DNA of 64,000 nt from Escherichia coli (GTDB lineage Bacteria > Pseudomonadota > Gammaproteobacteria > Enterobacterales > Enterobacteriaceae). Positions within the stretch are counted from its first letter, which is position 1. Each line of letters opens with the position of its first letter. The notes beneath the pieces are model-generated. The model had not been told where the DNA came from. It saw nothing but the letters and a program-made list of their open reading frames with translations, and ran no database searches. The position numbers and the translations under genes are program-made. Below are positions 4,654-56,908 of the stretch, piece by piece. The stretch is from NCBI RefSeq assembly GCF_003018235.1, contig NZ_CP027437.1. One strand, written 5' to 3'.

Positions 4654-5667
4654 TTGGATTTTAAACATCTTACTCAATTTAAAGATATAATTGAACTGGA
4701 CAAGCGCCCTGTTAAACTTGATGAACGGGAAACGTTTAATGTCTCATGGGGTATTGATGAGAACTACCAGGTAGGGGCTGCGATTTCAATTGCTTCAATT
4801 CTTGAAAATAATAAACAAAACAAATTTACCTTTCACATAATCGCTGATTACTTAGACAAAGAGTATATTGAATTATTATCACAATTAGCAACGAAGTATC
4901 AAACAGTAATTAAATTATATCATATTGATTCTGAGCCATTGAAGGCGCTACCTCAATCAAATATCTGGCCAGTATCTATTTATTATCGTTTGCTTTCATT
5001 TGATTATTTTTCTGCGCGATTGGATTCATTATTATATCTTGATGCTGATATCGTCTGTAAGGGTTCATTGAACGAGTTAATAGCATTAGAGTTTAAAGAT
5101 GAATATGGGGCTGTGGTAATTGATGTAGATGCTATGCAAAGTAAAAGCGCTGAGCGTTTATGTAATGAGGATTTTAACGGTAGCTATTTTAACTCTGGTG
5201 TAATGTATATTAATTTACGGGAATGGTTACAACAAAGACTAACGGAGAAATTCTTTGATCTATTATCAGATGAGTCAATTATCAAAAAATTAAAGTATCC
5301 GGATCAAGATATTTTAAACTTAATGTTTTTACATCATGCTAAAATATTACCGAGAAAATATAATTGTATTTATACTATAAAGTCAGAATTTGAAGAAAAA
5401 AATAGTGAATATTACACCCAGTTTATTAATGATGAAACTGTCTTCATACATTATACTGGTGTAACTAAGCCATGGCATGATTGGGCGGACTACGCATCTG
5501 CAGATTATTTCCGTAATATTTATAATATATCTCCATGGAGAAATATACCTTATAAAAAAGCTGTTAAAAAACATGAGTACAAAGAAAAATATAAACACTT
5601 GCTTTACCAGAAAAAATTTCTCGATGGTGTTTTTACAGCAATTAAATATAATGTTATGAAAGGTTAA
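4654..5667 (+). CDS. LPS outer-core glycosyltransferase, GT8 family (WaaJ/WaaT-like)
   Basis: 337 aa, paralogous to the 2889-3896 product (same YLDADI / DQD / KPWH motifs). No in-frame ATG after the upstream stop; TTG at 4654 preceded by AAGGG Shine-Dalgarno. Confidence 0.7.
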   Translation: MDFKHLTQFKDIIELDKRPVKLDERETFNVSWGIDENYQVGAAISIASILENNKQNKFTFHIIADYLDKEYIELLSQLATKYQTVIKLYHIDSEPLKALPQSNIWPVSIYYRLLSFDYFSARLDSLLYLDADIVCKGSLNELIALEFKDEYGAVVIDVDAMQSKSAERLCNEDFNGSYFNSGVMYINLREWLQQRLTEKFFDLLSDESIIKKLKYPDQDILNLMFLHHAKILPRKYNCIYTIKSEFEEKNSEYYTQFINDETVFIHYTGVTKPWHDWADYASADYFRNIYNISPWRNIPYKKAVKKHEYKEKYKHLLYQKKFLDGVFTAIKYNVMKG

Positions 5668-5675
5668 TACTCGAG

Positions 5676-6818
5676 ATGGTTGATAAAATAATATTTACAG
5701 TCACTCCTATTTTTTCAATTCCTCCTCGCGGAGCGGCCGCTGTTGAAACGTGGATGTATCAGGTTGCTCAGCGTACCAATTTCCCAAATCGTATTGTTTG
5801 TATCAAGAATCCAGGATACTCAAATTACACCTTTGTTAATGATAATTGTAGTATTCATAGGGTTGGATTCAGTCGCATATATAAGCGGTTATTTCAAAAA
5901 TGGACAAGACTTGATCCTCTTCCATATTCACAGAGAATATTGAATATTGCCCATGATTTTCCTATAACGAAAGAAAGTGTTATTGTAGTTCATAATAGCA
6001 TGAAACTATACACTCAAATTCGTAAGCGAGCTCCTCAGGCAAGAGTGGTTATTCATATGCATAATGCATTTGAACCAAAATTGCTTGAGCAAAATGTTAA
6101 AATGATAGTGCCTAGTTTATACTTGAAAAAGTATTACCAATCTTATTTAGCAAATGCAGATATTGAGATTGTACCAAATGGAATTGATTTAGAAACCTAT
6201 CAATCTACTTTTCAGCCGATCACTAGAAGCGAACTTAATATCTCCCCTGAAGAGAAAATTATTTTTTATGCTGGGCGTATCGTCCCTGATAAAGGCATAT
6301 TACTGTTGATGCAATCATTCGAAAAATTGGCCGCTGCTCACAAAAATTTAAAATTAGTTGTGATTGGTGATTATACAGAAATGAGTAAAAGTGACAAAGG
6401 TGCATATCAACGCAATGTCAGGGAAATTGCAAAACGTTTGAAGGATCGTTGCATTATGTTAGGAAGCATACCGCCTGAAAATATGCATTGTTATTACCCA
6501 CTGGCGGATTTAGTCGTCATTCCTTCCCAGTTCCAGGAACCATTTTGCATGGTGGCAATTGAAGCTATGGGGGCTGGTAAGCCTGTTTTAGTGAGTACGC
6601 GTGGGGGGATGACGGAATTTGTCAAAGAAAATACTACGGGATTCCATTTAAAAGAACCTATGACTGCAGACTCCATAAGCAGCGATATTTTAAAAACGTT
6701 AGCGAATCCTGAATTAACAGCAGTTGCAAAGCAAGGTCAGGATTTTGTGTTTGATCACTACAGTTGGGATGGCGTAACTCAAAGATTTGAAGAGGTTATT
6801 CATAATTGGTTTGAATAA
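5676..6818 (+). CDS. LPS core glycosyltransferase (GT-B fold, GT4-like), last gene of the waaQ operon
   Basis: 380 aa; C-terminal region resembles GT4 retaining glycosyltransferases (EPFCMVAIEAMGAGKPVL); lies where strain-specific outer-core transferases sit. Confidence 0.65.
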   Translation: MVDKIIFTVTPIFSIPPRGAAAVETWMYQVAQRTNFPNRIVCIKNPGYSNYTFVNDNCSIHRVGFSRIYKRLFQKWTRLDPLPYSQRILNIAHDFPITKESVIVVHNSMKLYTQIRKRAPQARVVIHMHNAFEPKLLEQNVKMIVPSLYLKKYYQSYLANADIEIVPNGIDLETYQSTFQPITRSELNISPEEKIIFYAGRIVPDKGILLLMQSFEKLAAAHKNLKLVVIGDYTEMSKSDKGAYQRNVREIAKRLKDRCIMLGSIPPENMHCYYPLADLVVIPSQFQEPFCMVAIEAMGAGKPVLVSTRGGMTEFVKENTTGFHLKEPMTADSISSDILKTLANPELTAVAKQGQDFVFDHYSWDGVTQRFEEVIHNWFE

Positions 6819-46238: not shown

Positions 46239-46438
46239 TCATCATTCCCCCAATGGCTGGCTAATTGTCAGCCATTTTTTAAACTATCTCAAAATTTGCG
46301 ATTTTTGAGAGAGTTTTAGTTATCTCTGTAGTCCTTGCCCGTAAATTCGTGATAGCCGTCGTAAAGCTGTTACCGACTGGCGAAGATTTCGCCAGTCACG
46401 TCTACCCTTGTTATACCTCACACCGCAAGGAGACGATC

Positions 46439-47977
46439 ATGACCAATAATCCCCCTTCAGCACAGATTAAGCCCGGCGAGTATGGTTTCCCCCTCAAGTT
46501 AAAAGCCCGCTACGACAACTTTATTGGCGGCGAATGGGTAGCCCCTGCCGACGGCGAGTATTACCAGAACCTGACGCCGGTGACCGGGCAGCTGCTGTGC
46601 GAAGTGGCGTCTTCGGGCAAACGAGATATCGATCTGGCGCTGGATGCTGCGCACAAAGTGAAAGATAAATGGGCGCATACCTCGGTGCAGGATCGCGCGG
46701 CGATTCTGTTTAAGATTGCCGATCGGATGGAGCAGAACCTCGAACTGTTAGCGACCGCTGAAACCTGGGATAACGGCAAACCCATTCGCGAAACCAGTGC
46801 TGCTGATGTGCCGCTGGCGATTGACCATTTTCGCTATTTTGCCTCGTGTATTCGGGCGCAGGAAGGCGGTATTAGTGAAGTGGATAGCGAAACTGTGGCT
46901 TATCACTTCCACGAACCGTTAGGCGTGGTGGGGCAGATTATTCCGTGGAACTTCCCGCTGCTGATGGCGAGCTGGAAAATGGCTCCCGCGCTGGCGGCGG
47001 GCAACTGTGTGGTGCTGAAACCCGCACGTCTTACCCCGCTTTCTGTACTGCTGCTAATGGAAATCGTCGGTGATTTACTGCCGCCGGGCGTGGTGAACGT
47101 GGTTAACGGCGCTGGTGGGGAAATTGGCGAATATCTGGCGACCTCGAAACGCATCGCCAAAGTGGCGTTTACCGGCTCAACGGAAGTGGGTCAACAAATT
47201 ATGCAATACGCCACGCAAAACATTATTCCGGTGACGCTGGAGCTGGGCGGCAAATCGCCAAATATCTTCTTTGCTGACGTGATGGATGAAGAAGATGCCT
47301 TTTTTGATAAAGCGCTGGAAGGCTTTGCACTGTTTGCCTTTAACCAGGGCGAAGTTTGCACCTGTCCAAGCCGTGCTTTAGTGCAGGAGTCTATCTACGA
47401 ACGCTTCATGGAACGCGCCATCCGCCGTGTTGAAAGTATTCGTAGCGGTAACCCGCTCGACAGCGTGACGCAAATGGGTGCGCAGGTATCTCACGGGCAA
47501 CTGGAAACCATCCTCAATTACATTGATATCGGCAAAAAAGAGGGCGCAGACGTGCTCACCGGCGGGCGGCGCAAGCTGCTGGAAGGCGAACTGAAAGACG
47601 GCTACTACCTCGAACCGACTATTTTGTTTGGTCAGAACAATATGCGGGTGTTCCAGGAGGAGATATTTGGCCCGGTGCTGGCGGTGACCACCTTCAAAAC
47701 GATGGAAGAAGCGCTGGAGCTGGCGAACGATACGCAATATGGCCTGGGCGCTGGCGTCTGGAGCCGCAACGGTAATCTGGCCTATAAGATGGGGCGCGGC
47801 ATTCAGGCTGGGCGCGTGTGGACCAACTGTTATCACGCTTACCCGGCACATGCGGCGTTTGGCGGCTACAAACAGTCGGGCATCGGACGCGAAACCCATA
47901 AGATGATGCTTGAGCATTACCAGCAAACCAAATGCCTGCTGGTGAGCTACTCGGATAAACCGTTGGGGCTGTTCTGA
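46439..47977 (+). CDS. aldB: Aldehyde dehydrogenase B
   Basis: ORF track 542 aa; internal ATG at 46439 ([22 protein letters not shown]) gives 512 aa; aldehyde dehydrogenase catalytic motifs (ELGGKSP, CTCPSR). Confidence 0.9.
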
Positions 47978-47981
47978 TGTG

Positions 47982-48020
47982 AAAGGCAGGCAACGTTAAT
48001 AGTTGTCTGCCTTTGTTTTA
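47982..48020. terminator. Putative bidirectional terminator between convergent aldB and the 359-aa nuclease-like gene
   Basis: AAAGGCAGGCAAC-gttaata-GTTGTCTGCCTTT (13-bp stem, 1 mismatch) followed by a T-rich run. Confidence 0.5.
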
Positions 48021-49097
48021 GTTGTATAAAGCGGCAGTCGCTTTTAACTCATCGCTGAAAGAATAAATATCATCGAGAGATTCAATAGGATGGCGGGTTT
48101 CGTTTTTCTCTAAGTCAAATAAACCAATATATTTTTGATTTCGATTGAAATGTAATCTACAGAGTGGCTTTCGATTATTGTCATCTACAAGTATACCAAA
48201 ATAGCTTTTTGTATCTCTGTGGACTATTCGTGGTGCATCAAGCACTACGCGAACTATAGCTTTAACAATATGAAATCCTTCAAGTTCCTCCATAGTAGTA
48301 GCAATATCGGTTTCTTCTTTATTAATACATTCTACTTCCTCATTGTGTGAATTCGAATCAATTACAGATAATGACCCACCACCTATTGCCGATTTCAATC
48401 TTTCGTTTATTTGAGAGTTAATATATTGATTGGCAGCTTTCTTTGTTAATTTTGCAAACGTATCTTTTACCTTTTGTGTTAACATACCTTCATAAATTCT
48501 TGCTGCAAAGAATTTTACAAAATCCTCTTCAGGATTATTCATTTGTGCATGGAGAACTTTTTTAATTAAACTAACATATTTTAATTCACCTGCAGCATTA
48601 ATTATTGATTCCAAATCAAATGCTGATTTAGTAAGCTTCTTTATCTCGGGAACAACTGTTTCATCTAAGTCAAGTAGATCTATCTCAAGAAATGGTTTTT
48701 CATCCATTTTATTAGGTGCTTCTAAATCAGTAAAAAATTTATAAACTTGTCCATTGGTTAGAATAGATATTCTTGCATTTGTTACATGAAAGTATCGAAA
48801 AAGCTGTGAAGCATGATTTATATTTAGAGGATCGCCAATTTTTTTGCATTCAATGAGAATCTGAACCTCGCTATTTTTTAAGATTGCATAGTCAATCTTT
48901 TCACCTTTCTTCGTTCCAATATCGCATACAAACTCTGGGATAACTTCGGTAGGATCAAAGACATCATAACCTAACACATTGTTAATGAACGGCATTACGA
49001 AAGCATTTTTGGTAGCTTCCTCCGTTTCAATGACTCCGGCTTGTTGTTTTATTTTTGCGGATAATGAATTCAGCTTATCTATAAACTCCATAGACAT
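48018..49097 (-). CDS. Hypothetical protein with N-terminal HsdR_N-like PD-(D/E)xK nuclease domain and an uncharacterised C-terminal domain
   Basis: 359 aa; AAGGAG Shine-Dalgarno 6 nt upstream; N-terminus has the HsdR_N pattern (TEEATKNAFVMPFINNVLGYD, then IDYAIL ... ILIECKK as D...ExK); gene is markedly AT-rich. Confidence 0.6.
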   Translation of the reverse strand: MSMEFIDKLNSLSAKIKQQAGVIETEEATKNAFVMPFINNVLGYDVFDPTEVIPEFVCDIGTKKGEKIDYAILKNSEVQILIECKKIGDPLNINHASQLFRYFHVTNARISILTNGQVYKFFTDLEAPNKMDEKPFLEIDLLDLDETVVPEIKKLTKSAFDLESIINAAGELKYVSLIKKVLHAQMNNPEEDFVKFFAARIYEGMLTQKVKDTFAKLTKKAANQYINSQINERLKSAIGGGSLSVIDSNSHNEEVECINKEETDIATTMEELEGFHIVKAIVRVVLDAPRIVHRDTKSYFGILVDDNNRKPLCRLHFNRNQKYIGLFDLEKNETRHPIESLDDIYSFSDELKATAALYN

Positions 49098-49571
49098 TAT
49101 AACTCCTTTTATATATATTTAATAAAAATGCGTTTTATAAAAATATAGAAAATATTTATATATTAACGCGTTATCATTGGTCATAGTTAATGTATAACAC
49201 ACAAAAAATAATGTTTGCACATTGTAAATACAATGGTGAAACAAACTTGATATTTATCAAGAAAATAAAACAATGTCTTTTATTGGTTGTTTTAAACGTT
49301 CAATGAATACGAGTTGGAGCTATAGCAAGACTAGCTTCGATATCGCATGGATAATCTAATACAGATTTTTTAACACCTAATACTATGAGTTATATGTAAA
49401 TTGCGAGCATCCTCGCATCTTTTCAACAAGTTACTGCACACCGTTATTCTCCTTCCGAGCGGCATTCCTGAGTCAACTTTATCCCCCTGACGGCCCATAT
49501 AAATCGCGCTATCGTGATTGTTATCGCTAATTGTGTGTGTATCGTGTGTATAATCATGGAAGGGCAGGGAT

Positions 49572-49757
49572 GTGAAAAGTGCAGACGTGATCGCCATCCT
49601 GAAGCAGCATGGCTGGGAACATATTCGAACCCGTGGCAGTCATCATCAGTTCCGCCACCCTGTTCATCCGGGTCTGGTGACGGTTCCGCACCCTAAAAAA
49701 GATATTAAGCCCGGTACGCTGGCGCAAATTGGGCGTCAGGCTGGTTTAACATTTTAA
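49572..49757 (+). CDS. hicA: HicA-family toxin (mRNA interferase)
   Basis: 61 aa; HicA motif HGWEHIRTRGSHHQFRHP...VPHPKKDIKPGTLAQIGRQAGL; GTG start assumed, exact start uncertain. Confidence 0.75.
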   Translation: MKSADVIAILKQHGWEHIRTRGSHHQFRHPVHPGLVTVPHPKKDIKPGTLAQIGRQAGLTF

Positions 49758-49773
49758 AATTTCAGGAGGCAAT

Positions 49774-50184
49774 ATGTTTTATCCCGCCTATATCCACAGT
49801 GATCCTGACGGCAGCGCCAGCGGTTTTTTCCCTGATGTTCCAGGCTGTTATTTTGCTGGTGATACGCTGGACAACGCTTTCCAGGATGCGCGAAGTGCAC
49901 TGGTCGCGCACTTCGAAACCTTATGCGAGATGAATGAAGAGTTGCCGCTTCCAGGCTCTGTGGAAACACATCTGGTCCAGCGTGCGCAGGACTTTATTGG
50001 CGGGCAATGGTTGCTGGTGGATATCAATATGAATCAGTTCGAAGGTCGGGCTGAACGTATCAATATTACGATGCCGAAAAGATTACTGAACAAGATTGAT
50101 ACCTACGTGCGCAATAACCCAGACTACGCCAACAGAAGTGCGTTTCTGGCGGAAGCTGCCCGGCGTGTATTGCCGGGCGCTTAA
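49774..50184 (+). CDS. hicB: HicB-family antitoxin (RNase H-like fold with C-terminal ribbon-helix-helix)
   Basis: 136 aa; AGGAGG Shine-Dalgarno; C-terminal RHH-like segment (ITMPKRLLNKIDTYV...SAFLAEAARRVL); 16 bp after hicA. Confidence 0.75.
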   Translation: MFYPAYIHSDPDGSASGFFPDVPGCYFAGDTLDNAFQDARSALVAHFETLCEMNEELPLPGSVETHLVQRAQDFIGGQWLLVDINMNQFEGRAERINITMPKRLLNKIDTYVRNNPDYANRSAFLAEAARRVLPGA

Positions 50185-50255
50185 TCCCGCGTTTCGATGG
50201 TTGGCGGGCAACCGCACCGATATGTTGATACTGATAAGACGCGTTAAGCGTCGCA

Positions 50256-52220
50256 TCATGCGCTGGTTTCCTCATTCACCCAGATCCGCATTTCGCCTTC
50301 ACCCCGGTTAGCCCAGCTAAACCACGGGATAAACGTCAGAGTTTGCGGCTGGCGTTTGGCTGGCGCGCTGTCGTAATGCCACAGCGGTTGCTGCTCTGGA
50401 TTGCTCTGTTCATACCGGTAACCCGGTGCCTGGATTAAGATCTTATGGCTGAACAATCCCTTGCCTTCAAAGGTCGTAAATGGCGCATCGGCGGGCAGCC
50501 ACAGGTTATGTAGTGACTCGCCGTTGTCGGCCTGTTCCAGGCAATACACCAGCGGGCCGCGCTGAATCGCCACTTTTCCGGCGACGTGACGCACCAGCGG
50601 GTTACCGTAAACGCGGCGTACCGGCATCGGCAAAGTCAGATTCAGCGTATCGCCCTCCTGCCATTCGCGGGTAATGTGCAAATACCCTTTACGAATATCC
50701 TGCCCGACCTCTTCCCCATTCAATATGATCTGCGGCTGTGTGCACCAGTCCGGCAGACGTAAAGCCAGCGTATGACGCACCGGCTGGGGCGATTCAACCG
50801 CAATTGTCACCTGTTCCTGCCACGGATAGTTCCCGCTAATCCGCAGGCGCAACGTGCCATTTTCTACCGGCACTTCCATGCTGTTTCCTGCATATATGTT
50901 GATATACAACGCATCTTCACGCGGCGTGTAGAGATAATGACCAATCGAGGTCAGTACGCGGGCGATATTTGGCGGACAACAAGCGCAGCCAAACCAACGC
51001 TGGCGGATCGGCTTAACGTGATCGTAGATATGGTTGAATTTCAGCGATTTTGGATGTACTTCCAGCGGATTCACATAGAAGAAATGTTTGCCATCCAGTG
51101 CCATGCCGCCGAGCACAGTGTTGTACAGTGCGCGCTCCATCACATCGGCATATTGACTGTCGCCTTCCATTTCCAGCATTCGTCGGGCGAACATCATCAG
51201 GCCGATGGAAGCACAACTTTCGGCGTAAACCGTGTCATTCGGCAGATCGTAATCGCTGCTAAACGCTTCGCCGCTGCTTTGTGAGCCAATGCCGCCGGTA
51301 ATATATAACTGACGCTGGGCCATATTGTTCCACAGCCGCAGGCAATCCTGACGCTTGCTTTCATCGTGACTTAAACGCGCCAGATGTGCGACGCCAGTCA
51401 TCAGGTAGACAAAGCGTACTGCATGTCCGATGGCGGTTTGTTGCTGTGCGATGGGCAAATGCGCCTGGCTGTAGGCTTTATCTTTCACCATCCACGCCGG
51501 GCCGTAGGTGTGCCAGTGCGAGGTCTGCCCGCGCTTTTCATATTCCTGGTCGTAATAGTGCGGTTGCGCACCACGCTGTTCGACAAAATAGTTCGTCAGC
51601 GCCAGGTAGCGCGGCTCTTCGGTCACTTCATACAGGCGCATTAGTGCCAGTTCAATTTCCGGGTGACCAGGATAACCGTGTAACTTACTTTCACCTGGAC
51701 CAAATACGCTGTCGATATGATCGGCCAGACGGCAAACCACTTCCAGCAAGCGCCGCTTGCCCGTGGCCTGGAAGAAGGCGACTCCGGCTTCAATCAGATG
51801 ACCGGCGCAGTAAAGTTCATGACACTCCGCCAGATTGCTCCAGCGTTCTTCGGGCGCTTTTACCGTAAAGTAAGTATTGAGATAGCCATCTTCGCACTGG
51901 GCGGAGGCGATCAGTTCAATCACCTCGTCAGCAGTTTTTTCCAGTTCGGCATCCGGCTTCTGGCACAGCGACCAGGCTACCGCTTCCAGCCATTTGGCGA
52001 CGTCGCTGTCCTGAAACACCATCCCGTAAAATTCACCGTCTTGCAGTCCTGCGGCAATGCGAAAGTTTTCAATCGCATGGCTGGGTTCCGCTTCTGGGAT
52101 ACGATCGTTCAAGGCGTCCCACTGATAAGGAATCACCACATCGCGGACCAGTTGTTGGTACTGACCGAGGAACGGATCGCTGACCGTCAGTTTATGCAGA
52201 TCGACTTCCGAAATGTTCAT
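50256..52220 (-). CDS. Glycoside hydrolase family 127 (DUF1680; beta-L-arabinofuranosidase-like)
   Basis: ORF track starts at an upstream TTG; ATG at 52220 (MNISEVDLHKL) is preceded by AAGGAG and gives about 654 aa; Cys-rich motif WFGCACCPPNIARVL. Confidence 0.75.
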   Translation of the reverse strand: MNISEVDLHKLTVSDPFLGQYQQLVRDVVIPYQWDALNDRIPEAEPSHAIENFRIAAGLQDGEFYGMVFQDSDVAKWLEAVAWSLCQKPDAELEKTADEVIELIASAQCEDGYLNTYFTVKAPEERWSNLAECHELYCAGHLIEAGVAFFQATGKRRLLEVVCRLADHIDSVFGPGESKLHGYPGHPEIELALMRLYEVTEEPRYLALTNYFVEQRGAQPHYYDQEYEKRGQTSHWHTYGPAWMVKDKAYSQAHLPIAQQQTAIGHAVRFVYLMTGVAHLARLSHDESKRQDCLRLWNNMAQRQLYITGGIGSQSSGEAFSSDYDLPNDTVYAESCASIGLMMFARRMLEMEGDSQYADVMERALYNTVLGGMALDGKHFFYVNPLEVHPKSLKFNHIYDHVKPIRQRWFGCACCPPNIARVLTSIGHYLYTPREDALYINIYAGNSMEVPVENGTLRLRISGNYPWQEQVTIAVESPQPVRHTLALRLPDWCTQPQIILNGEEVGQDIRKGYLHITREWQEGDTLNLTLPMPVRRVYGNPLVRHVAGKVAIQRGPLVYCLEQADNGESLHNLWLPADAPFTTFEGKGLFSHKILIQAPGYRYEQSNPEQQPLWHYDSAPAKRQPQTLTFIPWFSWANRGEGEMRIWVNEETSA

Positions 52221-52230
52221 CTTGTGCTCC

Positions 52231-53631
52231 TTAAGGCTGTACATGACGCTGACGCAGGTCGCTAGCAATGCGTGACATCATAGGGTTATTGAGTTTGCAA
52301 AAGCGGATCGCCATCGCCAGCAGTAGGTGGAATAGCGCAGGCAGCAATGTTTCCATCGCCGTGATCCCGCCAAGCGAACTGGCGGTCTGGTTTTCTACGC
52401 CTGGCTGGTAGGCGACAAAAATAAACAGCAGGCTGATGATCCCGGCGCTGGAGGCCCAGGCCAGTTTGATGAAAAACAGATTGAAGGCGAAGTTCATGCC
52501 GGAAGAACGTACGCGGGTTTTCCACTCGCCGTAGTCATCGGCAAAGGCCATCAATGAGAAGTGCAGTGGCAATGTGAAGCCAAGAATCACGCCATTACCG
52601 AGGATCACCGCCAGCCACAGCGTTTGATAAGCCGGGCCGGAGGGCAGGAACCACATCAACACCGCCAGTGAAGCGAGGAGCAGGTTGGTGTAGTAATAAA
52701 TTTTGACGGTATCGAAACGCCGCGTTAACGGGCTGACAATCACCGAGCCGATAATGGAGGCGAAGGTGACCATAGTGAAGAACAGCGACGTGTAGCCCGT
52801 ACTGCCTTGTAAGACGTAGGTAATGAAGTACATATACCCACCGCCGCGAATATTAAAGACGTTAATCAGCAGGAAAGACATGACCAGCATCAGCAGCAGT
52901 TGGTCGTTGTTTCGCAGCCCGGCAAGATGTTCGCGCAGGGTAAATTTCCCCATTGTGGAGAGTGGTACCCGTTCACGAACCCAGAAGAAACAGCACAGGA
53001 ACATCACCACAGCGATGGCGCACAGCACGCCGACGCCCAGTTGATAGCCGCGCGCGGCATTACCCTGACCGAAGAGATCCACCATCCACGGTAAGCCTAC
53101 CGAAACCAGAAATCCCGCTACACCGCAGAGAACGAATCGCCAGGACTGGCAGGAGATCACTTCATTGTGGCGGGTGGTCATGGTGTTGATCAGCGCGCAG
53201 TACGGCACGTTGATGGCGGTATAACCGACTGAAAGGAGCAGGTAAGTGCCGAACGCCCAGGCGATTTTTACTCCCATGCTGGCATCTGGCACGGTGAACG
53301 TCAGGATGCCGATAATGCCGATGGGAATGGCAATCCATAACTGCCACGGACGAAAGCGCCCCCAGTGACTTTGCGTCCGGTCGGCAATGACGCCCATCAC
53401 CGGGTCGGAGATGGCATCAAACACGCGCAGTGCAATAAACAGCGTGCCGACCAGCGCCGGAGTTAAGCCAAAAACGTCGGTGTAGAAAAAGGTGAGAAAG
53501 TTCATGATCAGGCAAGTTATTACGGTGCCGCCTGCGTCACCCAGGCCGTAGCCTATTTTTTCCCGTACAGATAACGCATCGTCAATTTTACCTTTAGCGA
53601 TATCAGCGGTAGTAATCGGTGTAGAGGTCAT
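52231..53631 (-). CDS. MFS glycoside-pentoside-hexuronide (GPH):cation symporter
   Basis: 466 aa, polytopic; GPH signature [25 protein letters not shown]; its stop lies 10 bp before the GH127 start. Confidence 0.8.
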
Positions 53632-53856
53632 AGATATTCCTCGTGAATAGGGAGCAATTTTTAGTTTTATTGCAATGACCTGATTAATTCTGCCGTGAAC
53701 GGGAATATCAACAAGGCGAGAAAAGAGTAAAAAAAGGTGACGATTCCGACCTGAATTTAAAAGTGTGAATTGGATCAGGTGAAATTAATGTTTTTGATTA
53801 ATAATCAAAAGGTAATGTGTTTAATCATTAATGAATAAGCGGGAAATTACATATCA

Positions 53857-54672
53857 ATGCTCGAATTATCCATGACGTTACCGATTAAAGTGCAAAATGG
53901 TGGATTATTTATTTCCCGTGGCGTAGGGAGGCATCCGGCAAGGCGGCTGGAGTCATGGGAAATTATCTTTGTCGAAAAAGGTCGATTAGCGATTCAGGAA
54001 GAAGAGCGGATATTTCTGGTCGATGCGGGAGAGAGTTTATTACTCTGGCCGAACCGACAGCATGTTGGGGTAGAGGATTTTCCCGCCGATCTCAAATTTT
54101 ACTGGCTGCATTTTGAGGTTAAAGCGCCGGATAGCGACCCGCGCTGGCTCACTCATCTTAGCGTGCCGCAACAAACGAAGGTTGCCGATCCGCAGGCGCT
54201 GGTGGCCCTGTTTCGCCAGTTCTTAAGCGAACAGGAAAAGCATCAACGCACTCCGGCGCTGGAGTTTATTGTGCTGCTGATTTTGCAGCAGCTCACCCGT
54301 GACGCGCGTCTTGATGAACAGGCCGATGCCGCAGGTACCACGCTTGCCTGGAAAGCGCAGAAACTGATCCGCACGCAATATCATCGCCCGCTTTCTACGG
54401 CGCTTTTAGCCCGCGAGCTGTACTGCAATGCCGATTATCTTGGGCGTGTCTATCGGCGGGTGTTTCATCTGACGTTAACAGAAGCAATTCATCGCCAGCG
54501 AGTGCGCGAAGCCGAAAAGCTGTTAATTAGCGAAGCGCGATCGCTCACTGAAGTGGCGGCGTTGTGCGGGTTTAATGACGTTGGCTATTTCCGGCAGATT
54601 TTTCGCAAACACACCGGTTTAACGCCAGCTGCGTGGAAGCGACGTTACAGCAAGGAACATATCAATTCGTAG
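53857..54672 (+). CDS. AraC/XylS-family transcriptional regulator
   Basis: 271 aa, N-terminal cupin-like domain and C-terminal double HTH (...EVAALCGFNDVGYFRQIFRKHTGLTPAAWKR); divergent from the transporter-GH127 pair. Confidence 0.8.
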   Translation: MLELSMTLPIKVQNGGLFISRGVGRHPARRLESWEIIFVEKGRLAIQEEERIFLVDAGESLLLWPNRQHVGVEDFPADLKFYWLHFEVKAPDSDPRWLTHLSVPQQTKVADPQALVALFRQFLSEQEKHQRTPALEFIVLLILQQLTRDARLDEQADAAGTTLAWKAQKLIRTQYHRPLSTALLARELYCNADYLGRVYRRVFHLTLTEAIHRQRVREAEKLLISEARSLTEVAALCGFNDVGYFRQIFRKHTGLTPAAWKRRYSKEHINS

Positions 54673-54703
54673 TGCCGGGGCAATGAAGCCCCGGCGTGAG
54701 GGA

Positions 54704-55399
54704 TTACTGCCCGTAATAGGCATTGGCCCCATGCTTACGCAGGTAGTGCTTATCCAACAGTTCGTTTTGCATCGCAGGAAGCTGCGGCGCAAGCTGACGC
54801 GAGAACAGGCCCATATAGGCACACTCTTCCAGCACCACGGCGTTATGCACTGCATCGGCGGCATTTTTTCCCCAGGCGAACGGGCCGTGAGAATGTACCA
54901 GAACCGCCGGGATTTGCGCTGGACTCCTGCCGCGTTCTTCGAGGGTTTCAATGATCACTTCGCCAGTCTGGTATTCATACTCGCCGTTGATCTCTTCTGC
55001 GGTCATCAGGCGCGTGCAGGGGATGGCTCCATAGAAGTAATCGGCGTGCGTGGTGCCCCAGGCGGGGAGATCCAGCCCGGCCTGTGACCAGATGGTCGCG
55101 TGGCGCGAGTGGGTATGCACAATGCCACCGATTTCGGCATAGCGACGGTAGAGCGCCAGATGCGTTGGCGTGTCGGACGAGGGCTTTTTGCTGCCTTCCA
55201 CCCCCTTACCGCTGGCTATCTCAACCACCACCATATCGTCGGCGGTCATCACGTCGTACTCGACGCCGGAAGGTTTGATTACCATCCATTGCCGCGTTTC
55301 GTCTACCGCGCTGACATTGCCCCAGGTGAACGTCACCAGATGGTGAGCGGGAAGTGCCAGATTTGCCGCCAGCACGTCGGCTTTCAGTTGCTCTAACAT
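54704..55399 (-). CDS. sgbE: L-ribulose-5-phosphate 4-epimerase
   Basis: 231 aa class II aldolase/epimerase fold; last gene of the yiaK-sgbE operon. Confidence 0.85.
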
Positions 55400-56253
55400 A
55401 TAAAACCTGCCTCCTGCATACGCGCTTCAATCCAGCGCCGCGCCTGAATAATCTCCAGCACCGGCTCTTTGGCTTTTTCGGTCCACATCTCAATCAGGAA
55501 AGAACCGCGATAGTTCAGTTCATGCAGCGTTTTGAAGATGCCAACGAAATCGACGCAGCCTTCGCCAAACGGCACGTCGCGGAACTGTCCGGGGCTTTGC
55601 TCGGTGACTGGCTGGGTGTCTTTCAGGTGGATCGCGGCGATACGATCAATGCCCAGTTTCAGTTCGGCGGGAACATCATTGCCCCAGGCGCTGAGGTTGC
55701 CGACGTCCGGGTAGACGGTGAACCACGGCGAGGCGAGCATCTCGTCCCATTTTTTCCATTTGCTGATGGAGTTCATAAACGCGGTATCCATAATCTCCAC
55801 TGCCAGCATGACTTGTGATGCCGCCGCCTGTTCGACCGCCCACGCCAGCCCTTCAGCAAAACGTTGCTGGGTGCCTTCGTCGTGGTCTTCGTAATAGACG
55901 TCGTAACCTGCCAGTTGAATAGTACGAATGCCGAGATCGCGCGCCAGGCGAATCGCTTTACTCATGATCTCCCGTGCTCGCTGGCGTACCGCGTCGTCAC
56001 GGCTACCAAAAGGAAAGCGACGATGTGCGGACAGGCACATCGACGGAATGGCAACACCCGTTTGGATCATCGCAGTGACCAGCAAAGCACGTTGTGCGGC
56101 GCTCCAGTCAAGGCGTGACAGACGCTCGTCAGTTTCATCCACCGACATTTCGACAAAATCAAAGCCGCAGCTTTTTGCCAGCACCAGCCGCTCCGGCCAG
56201 GAGAGATCTTTCGCCAGCGCTTTTTCATAAATCCCTAACGGATGATTACGCAC
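55393..56253 (-). CDS. sgbU: L-xylulose-5-phosphate 3-epimerase (putative)
   Basis: ORF track 316 aa; GTG at 56253 gives 286 aa ([17 protein letters not shown]...), TIM-barrel sugar epimerase; overlaps its neighbours. Confidence 0.8.
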
Positions 56254-56908
56254 GCGCGCCTCCCCAGATAGCGTCGATTTGCGCATGGAAATCGCCTGCC
56301 ACCTGTGCCGGATTTGCCGCGCCTGCCAGCGCCCGTCCGGCAATAAACGCCTTTACGCGGATATCTTTAAACAGTGGCAGATCAGCAGGAGTAATACCGC
56401 CGGTAATGGAAAGCTCAAGGCCGATATCGGAAAGCGCCTTCATGCGTGCAAGATCGGCTTCGCCCCACTGTTGCCCGCTGGCTTGCGCGTCGCGACCGCG
56501 ATGATAAATCGCCTGCCGCACGCCAATACGATGCCAGTCGCGGGCGTCGTCCAGCGTCCAGTTACCGAACAGCTCTATCTGAATTTCACCGCCGCAGCGT
56601 TGCGCCATCGCGTGGCCTTTTTCCACCGTCGCGAGCGGTGCGGCGCAGATGATGGTCATCCAGTTAGCGCCTGCGCCAAATGCCTGTTGCGCGAGCGTTT
56701 CACCGGCATCGGCGACCTTCCAGTCAGCGACGATGATTTTGTTCGGGCACTGTTCGCGCAAGGCTTTCACTGCGCCAAGCCCTTCGTTTAAACAGAGAAT
56801 GGTGCCCGCTTCGACGATATCGACGCTGTCTTTTAACAGCATCACGTCGCGCTGTGCGTCTTCAAGTGATGAGTGGTCGAGGGCCAGTTGCAGAAGTGGT
56901 CGGCTCAT
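56246..56908 (-). CDS. sgbH: 3-keto-L-gulonate-6-phosphate decarboxylase
   Basis: 220 aa, OMP-decarboxylase-like; context. Confidence 0.85.

Follow-up and report, generated by a model that had tools for sequence, protein, structure and literature searches.

An old enterobacterial locus of independent gene modules, probably eroded by differential loss, between aldB and sgbE of Escherichia coli

The closest described counterparts of the locus analyzed here are the pseudogene scars of Escherichia coli K-12 and the insertions and deletions associated with REP/BIME elements; partial genes, REP elements and short microhomologies are common to them and to this locus. There is also no difference in kind from the presence/absence polymorphism that is typical of the E. 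coli pan-genome. Particular to the interval between aldB and sgbE is that its two common alleles are reciprocal deletion derivatives, so that they have no intact gene in common. A literature search found no description of polymorphism at the aldB-sgbE locus; the only relevant report that it returned concerns the variable presence of GH127 in IBD isolates.

The window analyzed here is a stretch of 64,000 nucleotides from an E. coli genome (contig NZ_CP027437.1) with an overall GC content of 0.50. The features of the aldB-sgbE interval are listed in Table 1. An initial annotation had described the gene content, coordinates and composition of this interval, and the open reading frames and the RefSeq annotation agree with that description. 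It had also stated that K-12 carries yiaW, yiaV, yiaU and yiaT between the same flanks, which is correct for the K-12 derivative XL1-Blue. The GC contrast is real; in a windowed analysis the nuclease gene and its upstream region have values of about 0.27-0.35 and the sugar genes values of about 0.51-0.58. The RefSeq annotation of the best-matching complete genome places exactly six CDS in the aldB-araD/sgbE interval, with no integrase, transposase or IS among them, as had been proposed. A repeat scan found no terminal direct or inverted repeats around the gene block, and a promoter and terminator scan likewise gave no mobile-element signature, with fewer promoter-like matches than the shuffled expectation. 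An integrative genomic island or replacement cassette was rejected on these grounds, and because the modules occur independently of each other.

Table 1. Coordinates of features in and around the aldB-sgbE interval of the window
Feature	Position	Strand	Remarks
aldB (aldehyde dehydrogenase B)	46439-47977	+	conserved left flank
13-bp-stem hairpin	47982-48014		between the convergent aldB and nuclease genes
nuclease gene	48018-49097	-	359 aa, GC 0.33
AT-rich region 5' of the nuclease gene	49098-49405		
hicA toxin gene	49572-49757	+	61 aa, GTG start
hicB antitoxin gene	49774-50184	+	136 aa
yiaWVUT deletion junction	50210-50261		~22 bp filler (50210-50231), then REP element (50232-50261)
GH127 beta-L-arabinofuranosidase gene	50256-52220	-	654 aa counted from ATG
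GPH-family cation symporter gene	52231-53631	-	
AraC-family regulator gene	53857-54672	+	divergent from the symporter gene
sgbE (L-ribulose-5-phosphate 4-epimerase)	54704-55399	-	right flank

The limits of the variable block had been set at 47978 and 54700. The left limit coincides with the aldB stop codon (47978-47980), which is the end of the homology common to all alleles. Position 54700 is not a junction; the right end of the K-12 deletion lies inside the AraC gene at about 54568. The hairpin behind aldB, a probable bidirectional terminator, is part of the nuclease module and stands where other alleles have the post-aldB REP element. The right edge of this module is at about 49399-49410 and adjoins a small hairpin (49402-49417).

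The distribution of the genes was examined in 5426 complete E. coli genomes, with allele counts obtained from an 80% coverage threshold and arithmetic and not from typing of each genome. The nuclease gene is present in 189 genomes (3.5%) and hicAB in 505 (9%), while yiaWVUT occurs in 3728 and the GH127-GPH-AraC sugar block in 2312 (~43%). K-12 and about 97% of E. coli hence differ from the window, in line with the view that its gene content is not that of most E. coli. In 1254 of the 5426 genomes yiaWVUT and the sugar block are found side by side, yiaT adjoining the intact GH127 gene, and in 16 genomes an intact hicAB adjoins yiaW, with yiaWVUT and then the sugar block behind it. Direct reading of the locus gave seven allele types, among them the near-complete allele aldB-hicAB-orf104-yiaWVUT-GH127-GPH-AraC-sgbE of strain EC42405. 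This comparison, which the initial annotation had suggested, defined alternative alleles and their junctions; the modules turned out to be independent and not two alternatives. At least four modules, each varying on its own, make up the aldB-sgbE interval.

The junctions show how these alleles are related. K-12 retains 190 bp of the GH127 gene (50358-50547 only) and 102 bp from the 3' end of the AraC gene (54569-54672 only), both annotated by PGAP as partial pseudogenes, and the same remnants occur in ~2470 genomes. Between aldB and yiaW it also retains the last ~27 codons of hicB (81% nucleotide identity over 114 bp; tblastn E 5e-7); a 49-bp exact piece of this scar is present in ~3400 genomes. 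The fact that scars of the hicB, GH127 and AraC genes remain indicates that the K-12 state is a deletion derivative. The junction of the 4021-bp deletion has at most 2 bp of microhomology, and the smaller deletion has a GGCTGG repeat at its junction. In the window ~25 bp are kept past hicB, followed by the filler of ~22 bp and the REP element; at the same junction EC42405 has 3824 bp with orf104 and yiaW-V-U-T. The window has thus lost yiaWVUT by a 3.8 kb deletion that ends at the REP element. REP elements are found both at the 3' end of aldB and at the yiaT/GH127 junction.

We then compared the locus with its counterparts outside E. coli. When species genomes were scanned with AldB as anchor, most matches were distant aldehyde dehydrogenases; ~14 enterobacterial loci were useful, none of them from E. 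fergusonii or the cryptic clades. The gene order is aldB-nuclease-yiaWVUT-GH127-GPH-AraC in Citrobacter freundii and Citrobacter sp. S2-9, and aldB-yiaWVUT-GH127-GPH-AraC in Citrobacter FP75 and C. werkmanii; in FP75 sgbE, sgbU and sgbH follow the AraC gene, and the C. werkmanii locus stops after it. The order is aldB-yiaUT-GH127-GPH-AraC in Leclercia and aldB-GH127-GPH-AraC in Enterobacter cloacae, Kluyvera and Pseudescherichia. Salmonella enterica likewise has the nuclease gene in convergent orientation to aldB, and the two genes are ~35-40 bp apart there and in two Citrobacter species. The Enterobacter nuclease lies in the same locus, but its order relative to a hicAB scar differs and is circularly permuted. 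No hicAB was found at the aldB locus of Citrobacter or Salmonella.

An alignment of the window with C. freundii runs unbroken across aldB and the nuclease gene (80.4%). Amino acid identities to C. freundii fall into a similar range for the nuclease (0.83), GH127 (0.88), GPH (0.90) and AraC (0.71) proteins. Relative to the Citrobacter, Salmonella and Enterobacter copies the nuclease of the window has 72-76% nucleotide and 78-86% amino acid identity; one ENA fragment of 301 aa is 93% identical over 90% of the query. At four-fold sites the identity to Citrobacter is 0.36 for the nuclease gene versus 0.43-0.55 for its neighbours, and because these sites are near saturation in both, orthology is not strictly demonstrable. 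The GC content of the nuclease gene is 0.33-0.35 in all three genera measured (Escherichia, Citrobacter and Enterobacter), which indicates that the low value is a property of the gene and no sign of recent import.

From these data we consider it probable, at roughly 80%, that the aldB-sgbE interval is an old enterobacterial locus of independent modules eroded by differential loss, of which the window and K-12 have kept different leftovers. The modules of the old locus would have been arranged in the order solitary nuclease, hicAB, small ORF plus yiaW-V-U-T, and GPH-GH127/AraC. Small illegitimate deletions, some of them ending at REP elements or short repeats, would have removed different modules in different E. 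coli lineages, and we infer that homologous recombination in the conserved flanks then redistributed the alleles between lineages. The window allele would have retained the nuclease, hicAB and the sugar cluster and lost orf104-yiaWVUT; from the K-12 allele, which retained yiaWVUT, the sugar cluster would have been lost together with the nuclease and most of hicAB. Since such reciprocal losses leave no shared intact gene, a comparison of the two resembles a replacement. The same resemblance, together with the mosaic composition, the lack of mobility genes and the recombination mosaic that the window shows against its best match, could also reflect a single foreign cassette of nuclease, hicAB, GH127, GPH and AraC genes that was swapped for yiaT-W in one step via recombination in the flanks. 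This is very unlikely, because each module is found without the others and also combined with yiaWVUT, because K-12 contains internal scars of the hicB, GH127 and AraC genes, and because its right-hand breakpoint lies within the AraC gene and not in the flank. In addition, the sugar cluster is located downstream of aldB in six other genera, including Citrobacter, Leclercia, Enterobacter, Kluyvera and Pseudescherichia, with a divergence at the level of orthologues. The term replacement-type region, used in the initial annotation, is hence appropriate in so far as different intact genes lie between the same flanks, but no single block was exchanged for yiaT-W; the coexisting modules, the K-12 scars, the intermediate alleles and the outgroup gene order contradict a cassette mechanism.

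The data do not prove in which direction the nuclease and hicAB changed within E. coli. Of the 189 nuclease genes, 182 share at least 99% identity, against a difference of 2-5% in the flanking genes, so that a recent introduction with recombinational spread also fits. The nuclease, with or without hicAB, would then be a mobile defence islet that a few E. coli lineages recently acquired behind the aldB stop codon and that later spread by recombination, with the sugar cluster and yiaWVUT being ancestral. Its low GC in a window of 0.50, its presence in so few genomes, the occurrence of its family in temperate phages and plasmids across phyla and the permuted order in Enterobacter all agree with this scenario, as does the finding that the module displaces ~100 bp of REP element and spacer and carries its own terminator hairpin. 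We nevertheless judge it unlikely, given the convergent position next to aldB in two Citrobacter species and Salmonella, the presence in the same locus in Enterobacter and the equally low GC in all three genera. Furthermore, no recent donor is visible, since the full-length homologues from outside E. coli among the matches listed are at most 85% identical; neither a recombinase nor repeats are present, and PADLOC recognises no defence system. Differential loss from an old locus remains the better account of the interval as a whole. That the arrangement is an artefact of assembly or chimerism in the window has a negligible probability. The 10-kb region reaches only 98.3% identity to any complete genome, but 189 complete E. 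coli genomes contain the same gene order and the same aldB-nuclease-hicA junction, one of them being 100% identical over 2.1 kb across aldB, the nuclease gene and hicA. The differences from the best-matching genome are scattered across the region as in ordinary allelic mosaicism. The fact that the best matches stop at 98.3% and 98.2% indicates that the window is an allelic, recombination mosaic; the 98.2% match is a chromosome misfiled in PLSDB.

Together, these results indicate that the aldB-sgbE interval varies because an old locus has lost different genes in different lineages, which is ordinary genome variation. This is a corrective: seen from K-12 the window seems to contain an exotic replacement island, while the eroded form is that of K-12. 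The GH127/GPH/AraC cluster, an old trait of the enterobacteria that is predicted to serve the use of beta-L-arabinofuranosides, was kept in ~43% of E. coli; ~46% of the genomes, including K-12, have deleted it and left identical scars. This loss is relevant to how strains differ in plant glycan use, and to association studies that treat GH127 as "acquired", an example being the correlation with invasiveness (PMC11879602).

The product of the nuclease gene has the restriction-endonuclease-like fold and the conserved D...(D/E)-x-K motif of the PD-(D/E)XK superfamily. Among described systems it is closest to the N-terminal PD-(D/E)XK domains found in HsdR of type I and in type IIG/IIL enzymes (3h1t, EcoR124I 2w00, BpuSI 3s1s, DrdV 7lo5); in contrast to these, it lacks helicase/translocase and methyltransferase domains as well as an adjacent methylase gene. 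Pfam detects HSDR_N/HSDR_N_2 only, at residues 26-129. The AF2 model consists of an N-terminal HsdR-N-like nuclease domain, a helical linker and a small, conserved, beta-rich C-terminal domain, the latter without a significant structural match. An identity as HsdR was rejected: the protein has 359 aa versus ~1000 aa and is devoid of SF2 helicase/translocase motor domains, and there are no hsdM/hsdS neighbours. Next to the nuclease gene are aldB and hicAB in E. coli; the other three genera, Citrobacter, Salmonella and Enterobacter, have aldB, yiaW or yiaT there. The product is therefore wrongly named in RefSeq ("type I restriction endonuclease").

The protein belongs to a large conserved family without characterised function, with at least 1200 clusters at 50% identity from chromosomes, plasmids and temperate phages of many phyla; a literature search found no description of what the family does. 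PADLOC-DB v2 gave a single match, weak and partial, to the nuclease domain of REase_MTase_IIG (E 2.7e-7, 27 bits), and an NCBIfam search of the nuclease, HicA and HicB had no match. The protein, whose active site is intact, is predicted to be an endonuclease that acts alone. It is most likely a restriction-like or defence nuclease, which we propose with low confidence. A bolder and rather doubtful proposal is that of a single-gene system targeting nucleic acids, e.g. a modification-dependent or phage-sensing defence nuclease with the C-terminal domain as sensor, in which the adjacency to hicAB might be functional. If true, the solitary nuclease beside aldB would be an uncharacterised system of this kind in Escherichia, Citrobacter and Salmonella.

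The neighbouring hicAB genes have the hallmarks of a type II toxin-antitoxin pair, i.e. both domains in adjacent, co-oriented genes with the toxin first. HicA contains HicA_toxin (PF07927, E 2e-23; phrog_353), in agreement with the RefSeq annotation, and HicB contains HicB_lk_antitox (PF15919, E 9e-36). Neither protein has a match in PADLOC-DB v2, and profile searches of PDB sequences with the nuclease and HicAB families gave nothing significant. Gene order, the 16-bp gap and both domains are as in known HicAB systems such as K-12 hicAB; this copy is separate, located elsewhere, and its function is a prediction only. HicA would be an mRNA-cleaving toxin restrained by HicB, going by the sequence. 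The nuclease and hicAB are neighbours in E. coli and again in Enterobacter, where hicAB is a scar.

The GH127 protein is similar over its full length (residues 11-650) to PDB 4qjy (E 1e-235) and to HypBA1 (3wkw, E 8e-153), and its Citrobacter orthologue contains PF07944, PF20736 and PF20737. The alignment pairs yaEsCas with ygEtCas and fgCaCCPpN with fgCaCCPaN, so that the E-x-C and C-x-C-C-P motifs are conserved. We take E338, C340, C417 and C418 to be the catalytic and Zn-binding residues of HypBA1. With the aceric acid hydrolase equivalog NF049879 of NCBIfam the protein scores 455 bits, below the cut-off of 950. The symporter scores 330.8 bits with TIGR00792 (cut-off 231.35). An orthologue of the arabinose operon regulator AraC was rejected for the third gene, which reaches 61 of the required 208 bits with NF007860 and is an AraC-family member only. 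The symporter gene is 10 bp upstream of the GH127 gene on the same strand, and the two therefore probably form one operon, which the divergent AraC-type regulator is predicted to control. The symporter would import a beta-L-arabinofuranoside, which the cytoplasmic GH127 enzyme would cleave to free L-arabinose. The pairing of GH127 with a dedicated transporter and regulator is like that in the clusters of Bifidobacterium longum HypBA1 and of the Geobacillus type. Unlike in those clusters the transporter is a GPH cation symporter and not an ABC importer, extracellular GH121/GH43 partner enzymes are absent, and the substrate is predicted. Carriers of the sugar cluster include B strains, O157 and ST131; in the one ST131 genome examined it is frameshifted.

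The aldB-sgbE interval is modular in E. coli. The window carries there a nuclease module, hicAB and a sugar block comprising genes for a GH127 glycosidase, a GPH symporter and an AraC-family regulator. The initial annotation had described this content correctly: it agrees with the ORF listing, the base composition and the annotation of the best-matching complete genome, which has the identical set of six CDS between aldB and araD/sgbE, and a K-12 derivative was found to have yiaW, yiaV, yiaU and yiaT (yiaWVUT) between the same flanks. The best-match annotation also upheld the absence of an integrase or IS between aldB and sgbE, and a repeat scan found no repeats flanking the block. Window 46300-56400 aligns with the best match as a mosaic (0 differences over 46300-47799; between 9 and 30 in each 500 bp of sgbE and sgbU), and identity over the 10 kb was at most 98.3% for every genome in the collections searched.

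Features of the aldB-sgbE interval in the window
Feature	Position	Strand	Remarks
aldB	46439-47977	+	left flank (ORF listing and composition)
hairpin	47982-48014		stem 13 bp
nuclease ORF	48018-49097	-	359 aa, GC 0.33
AT-rich region upstream of nuclease gene	to ~49400		part of nuclease module
hicA	49572-49757	+	61 aa
hicB	49774-50184	+	136 aa
GH127	50256-52220	-	654 aa
GPH symporter	52231-53631	-	10 bp upstream of GH127
AraC-family regulator	53857-54672	+	divergent from symporter gene
sgbE	54704-55399	-	right flank

When the 10-kb region was compared by megablast with 5426 complete E. coli genomes, the hits fell into several coverage classes, of which representatives were then read.

Alleles of the interval in E. 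coli
Allele	Modules	Examples
a	nuclease + hicAB + sugar block	window; HCP5S3_I2
b	hicAB + sugar block	WP2-W18-ESBL-10
c	yiaWVUT + sugar block	strain 2779; O157:H7 (also without whole sgb/yia operon)
d	sugar block alone	ST131 (GH127 frameshifted)
e	yiaWVUT alone	K-12
f	empty, aldB abuts sgbE	KKo003; also E. albertii
g	hicAB + orf104 + yiaWVUT + sugar block	EC42405

At ≥80% coverage (n = 5426), yiaWVUT was present in 3728 genomes, the sugar block in 2312, hicAB in 505 and the nuclease gene in 189; every nuclease carrier had the aldB-nuclease-hicA junction (189/5426). An intact GH127 gene was adjoined by yiaT in 1254 of the 5426 genomes, and intact hicAB adjoined yiaW in 16. Simple arithmetic on these counts gives approximate allele frequencies: about 2474 genomes (46%) for the K-12 type, 1254 (23%) for yiaWVUT with the sugar block, about 569 (10%) for the sugar block without other modules and about 489 (9%) for hicAB and the sugar block without yiaWVUT, these last including the 189 (3.5%) of the window type with nuclease. 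About 640 genomes fall outside these types. Hundreds of RefSeq genomes already have annotations for the genes of the block, and the variation is of the ordinary pan-genome kind.

Homology among all alleles ends at 47978-47980, right after the aldB stop. Most alleles have REP/BIME elements here; the window has its own terminator hairpin and then the nuclease gene, and its nuclease module (~47981-49405) stands where the hicAB-only allele has ~100 bp of REP and spacer. Between aldB and yiaW, K-12 keeps the 3' end of hicB (last ~27 codons; 81% nucleotide identity over 114 bp; tblastn E = 5e-7), and a 49-bp exact piece of this remnant occurs in about 3400 genomes. K-12 also lacks window 50548-54568 (4021 bp), with microhomology of ≤2 bp at the junction; a second deletion, bounded by GGCTGG repeats, covers the BIME and the GH127 3' end. 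Of GH127 a 190-bp fragment is left, and of the AraC gene the final 102 bp, both annotated by PGAP as partial pseudogenes. Since identical remnants are common to about 2470 genomes, the K-12 state is a widespread deletion derivative. Compared with EC42405, the window is missing 3824 bp (orf104-yiaW-V-U-T) and has instead ~22 bp of filler, up to a REP element at 50232-50261. In window coordinates, the module and scar junctions are 47978, ~49400, 50210/50232, 50262-50357 and 50548-54568.

The 104-aa hydrophobic orf104 lies between hicB and yiaW in EC42405 (locus L093, 9610-9924, minus strand). Its K-12 version is cut to 47 aa and annotated as hypothetical (L003, 3376-3519), and ~25 bp of it are left in the window (~50185-50209).

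Gene orders in other genera indicate that the sugar block and yiaWVUT are ancestral residents of the aldB locus. Citrobacter freundii and Citrobacter sp. S2-9 have selAB-yiaY-aldB-nuclease-yiaW-V-U-T-GH127-GPH-AraC, and Citrobacter FP75 and C. werkmanii have aldB-yiaWVUT-GH127-GPH-AraC, followed in FP75 by sgbE-sgbU-sgbH (the C. werkmanii locus stops there). Leclercia has aldB-yiaUT-GH127-GPH-AraC, while Enterobacter cloacae, Kluyvera and Pseudescherichia have aldB-GH127-GPH-AraC. The window and K-12 alleles derive reciprocally, by deletion, from a composite ancestral locus and by chance have no intact gene in common. The initial annotation had taken the block for a replacement-type region; its content does differ from that of K-12, but it is one of several deletion derivatives rather than a replacement cassette, and the earlier interpretation was K-12-centred.

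The nuclease gene, too, is an old resident of this locus, though one that is sporadically retained. In Salmonella enterica it is convergent with aldB, and in Enterobacter asburiae the order is aldB-yiaU-yiaT-[hicA'-hicB' scar]-nuclease-[AraC scar]-ysaA. Window and C. freundii align contiguously across aldB and the nuclease gene (80.4%), with amino acid identities of 0.83 for the nuclease, 0.71 for AraC, 0.88 for GH127, 0.90 for GPH, 0.91 for YiaY and 0.96 for AldB. The AT-richness is intrinsic to the nuclease gene, as its GC is 0.33-0.35 in all three genera measured. Within E. coli the gene could have been retained continuously or regained; the very low diversity (≥99% identity in 182 of 189 carriers) and the occurrence of the family on phages and plasmids elsewhere leave room for regain. 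The family corresponds to phrog_4225 'endonuclease', found in temperate phages of Porphyromonas, Corynebacterium, Enterococcus and Pseudomonas, and is also on plasmids of many phyla. RefSeq/PGAP names the window protein 'type I restriction endonuclease'; it carries the N-terminal nuclease domain only, lacks motor domains and has no hsdM/S partner genes.

In E. asburiae the hicA'-hicB' scar (L008/L010, 6085-6258; HicA residues 43-59, HicB residues 1-24 and 124-135) lies just past the stop of the nuclease gene (5001-6077). As hicAB lies beyond the nuclease start in E. coli, the two orders are circular permutations.

The symporter, GH127 and regulator likely form a predicted beta-L-arabinofuranoside utilisation set. 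Along its whole length GH127 matches beta-L-arabinofuranosidases of solved structure (4qjy, E = 1e-235; HypBA1, E = 8e-153) with the Glu-x-Cys and Cys-x-Cys-Cys-Pro motifs conserved, the transporter passes the GPH symporter model, and the regulator belongs to the AraC family but is not AraC itself. The symporter would import a beta-L-arabinofuranoside, which cytoplasmic GH127 would hydrolyse to L-arabinose, and the divergent regulator would induce the pair. HicA and HicB match their respective Pfam families strongly. What remains of interest is the nuclease family, which is uncharacterised, and the fact that K-12 has lost a cluster for plant-glycan utilisation.

Just left of the block, a Fic-family gene (431 aa) between yiaY and aldB is a further independent presence/absence module: it occurs in ST131, O157:H7, KKo003 and E. 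albertii (L005 1-306, L006 2718-4013, L026 91-1383) and is absent from the window (46239-46438) and K-12. On the right, O157:H7-type genomes are without the whole yiaJ-S/sgb operon; after AraC come the C-terminal remnant of an IclR gene (yiaJ) and then ysaA-avtA (L006 14058-14773; L012 915-2318). The order AraC-ysaA-avtA is also found in Citrobacter freundii, Enterobacter and Leclercia, so the sgbE 'flank' itself lies in a variable module. The yiaWV pair has a nearby duplicate, a paralogous DUF3302 and HlyD pair (yibI/yibH-like) 68-78% identical to YiaW/YiaV, which in Citrobacter, Leclercia, Kluyvera and Enterobacter lies near selA/yibF, a few kb upstream (L013 3057-4549, L012 18111-19606). 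EC42405 has an rhs element protein annotated upstream of yibF, and the window has a 1724-aa ORF upstream of the selAB region (27777-32951, minus strand). Several PLSDB records of 4.8-4.9 Mb (NZ_CP134663.1, NZ_CP141089.1 and NZ_OL790696.1) are in fact E. coli chromosomes, misfiled in this plasmid collection, and match this chromosomal locus.
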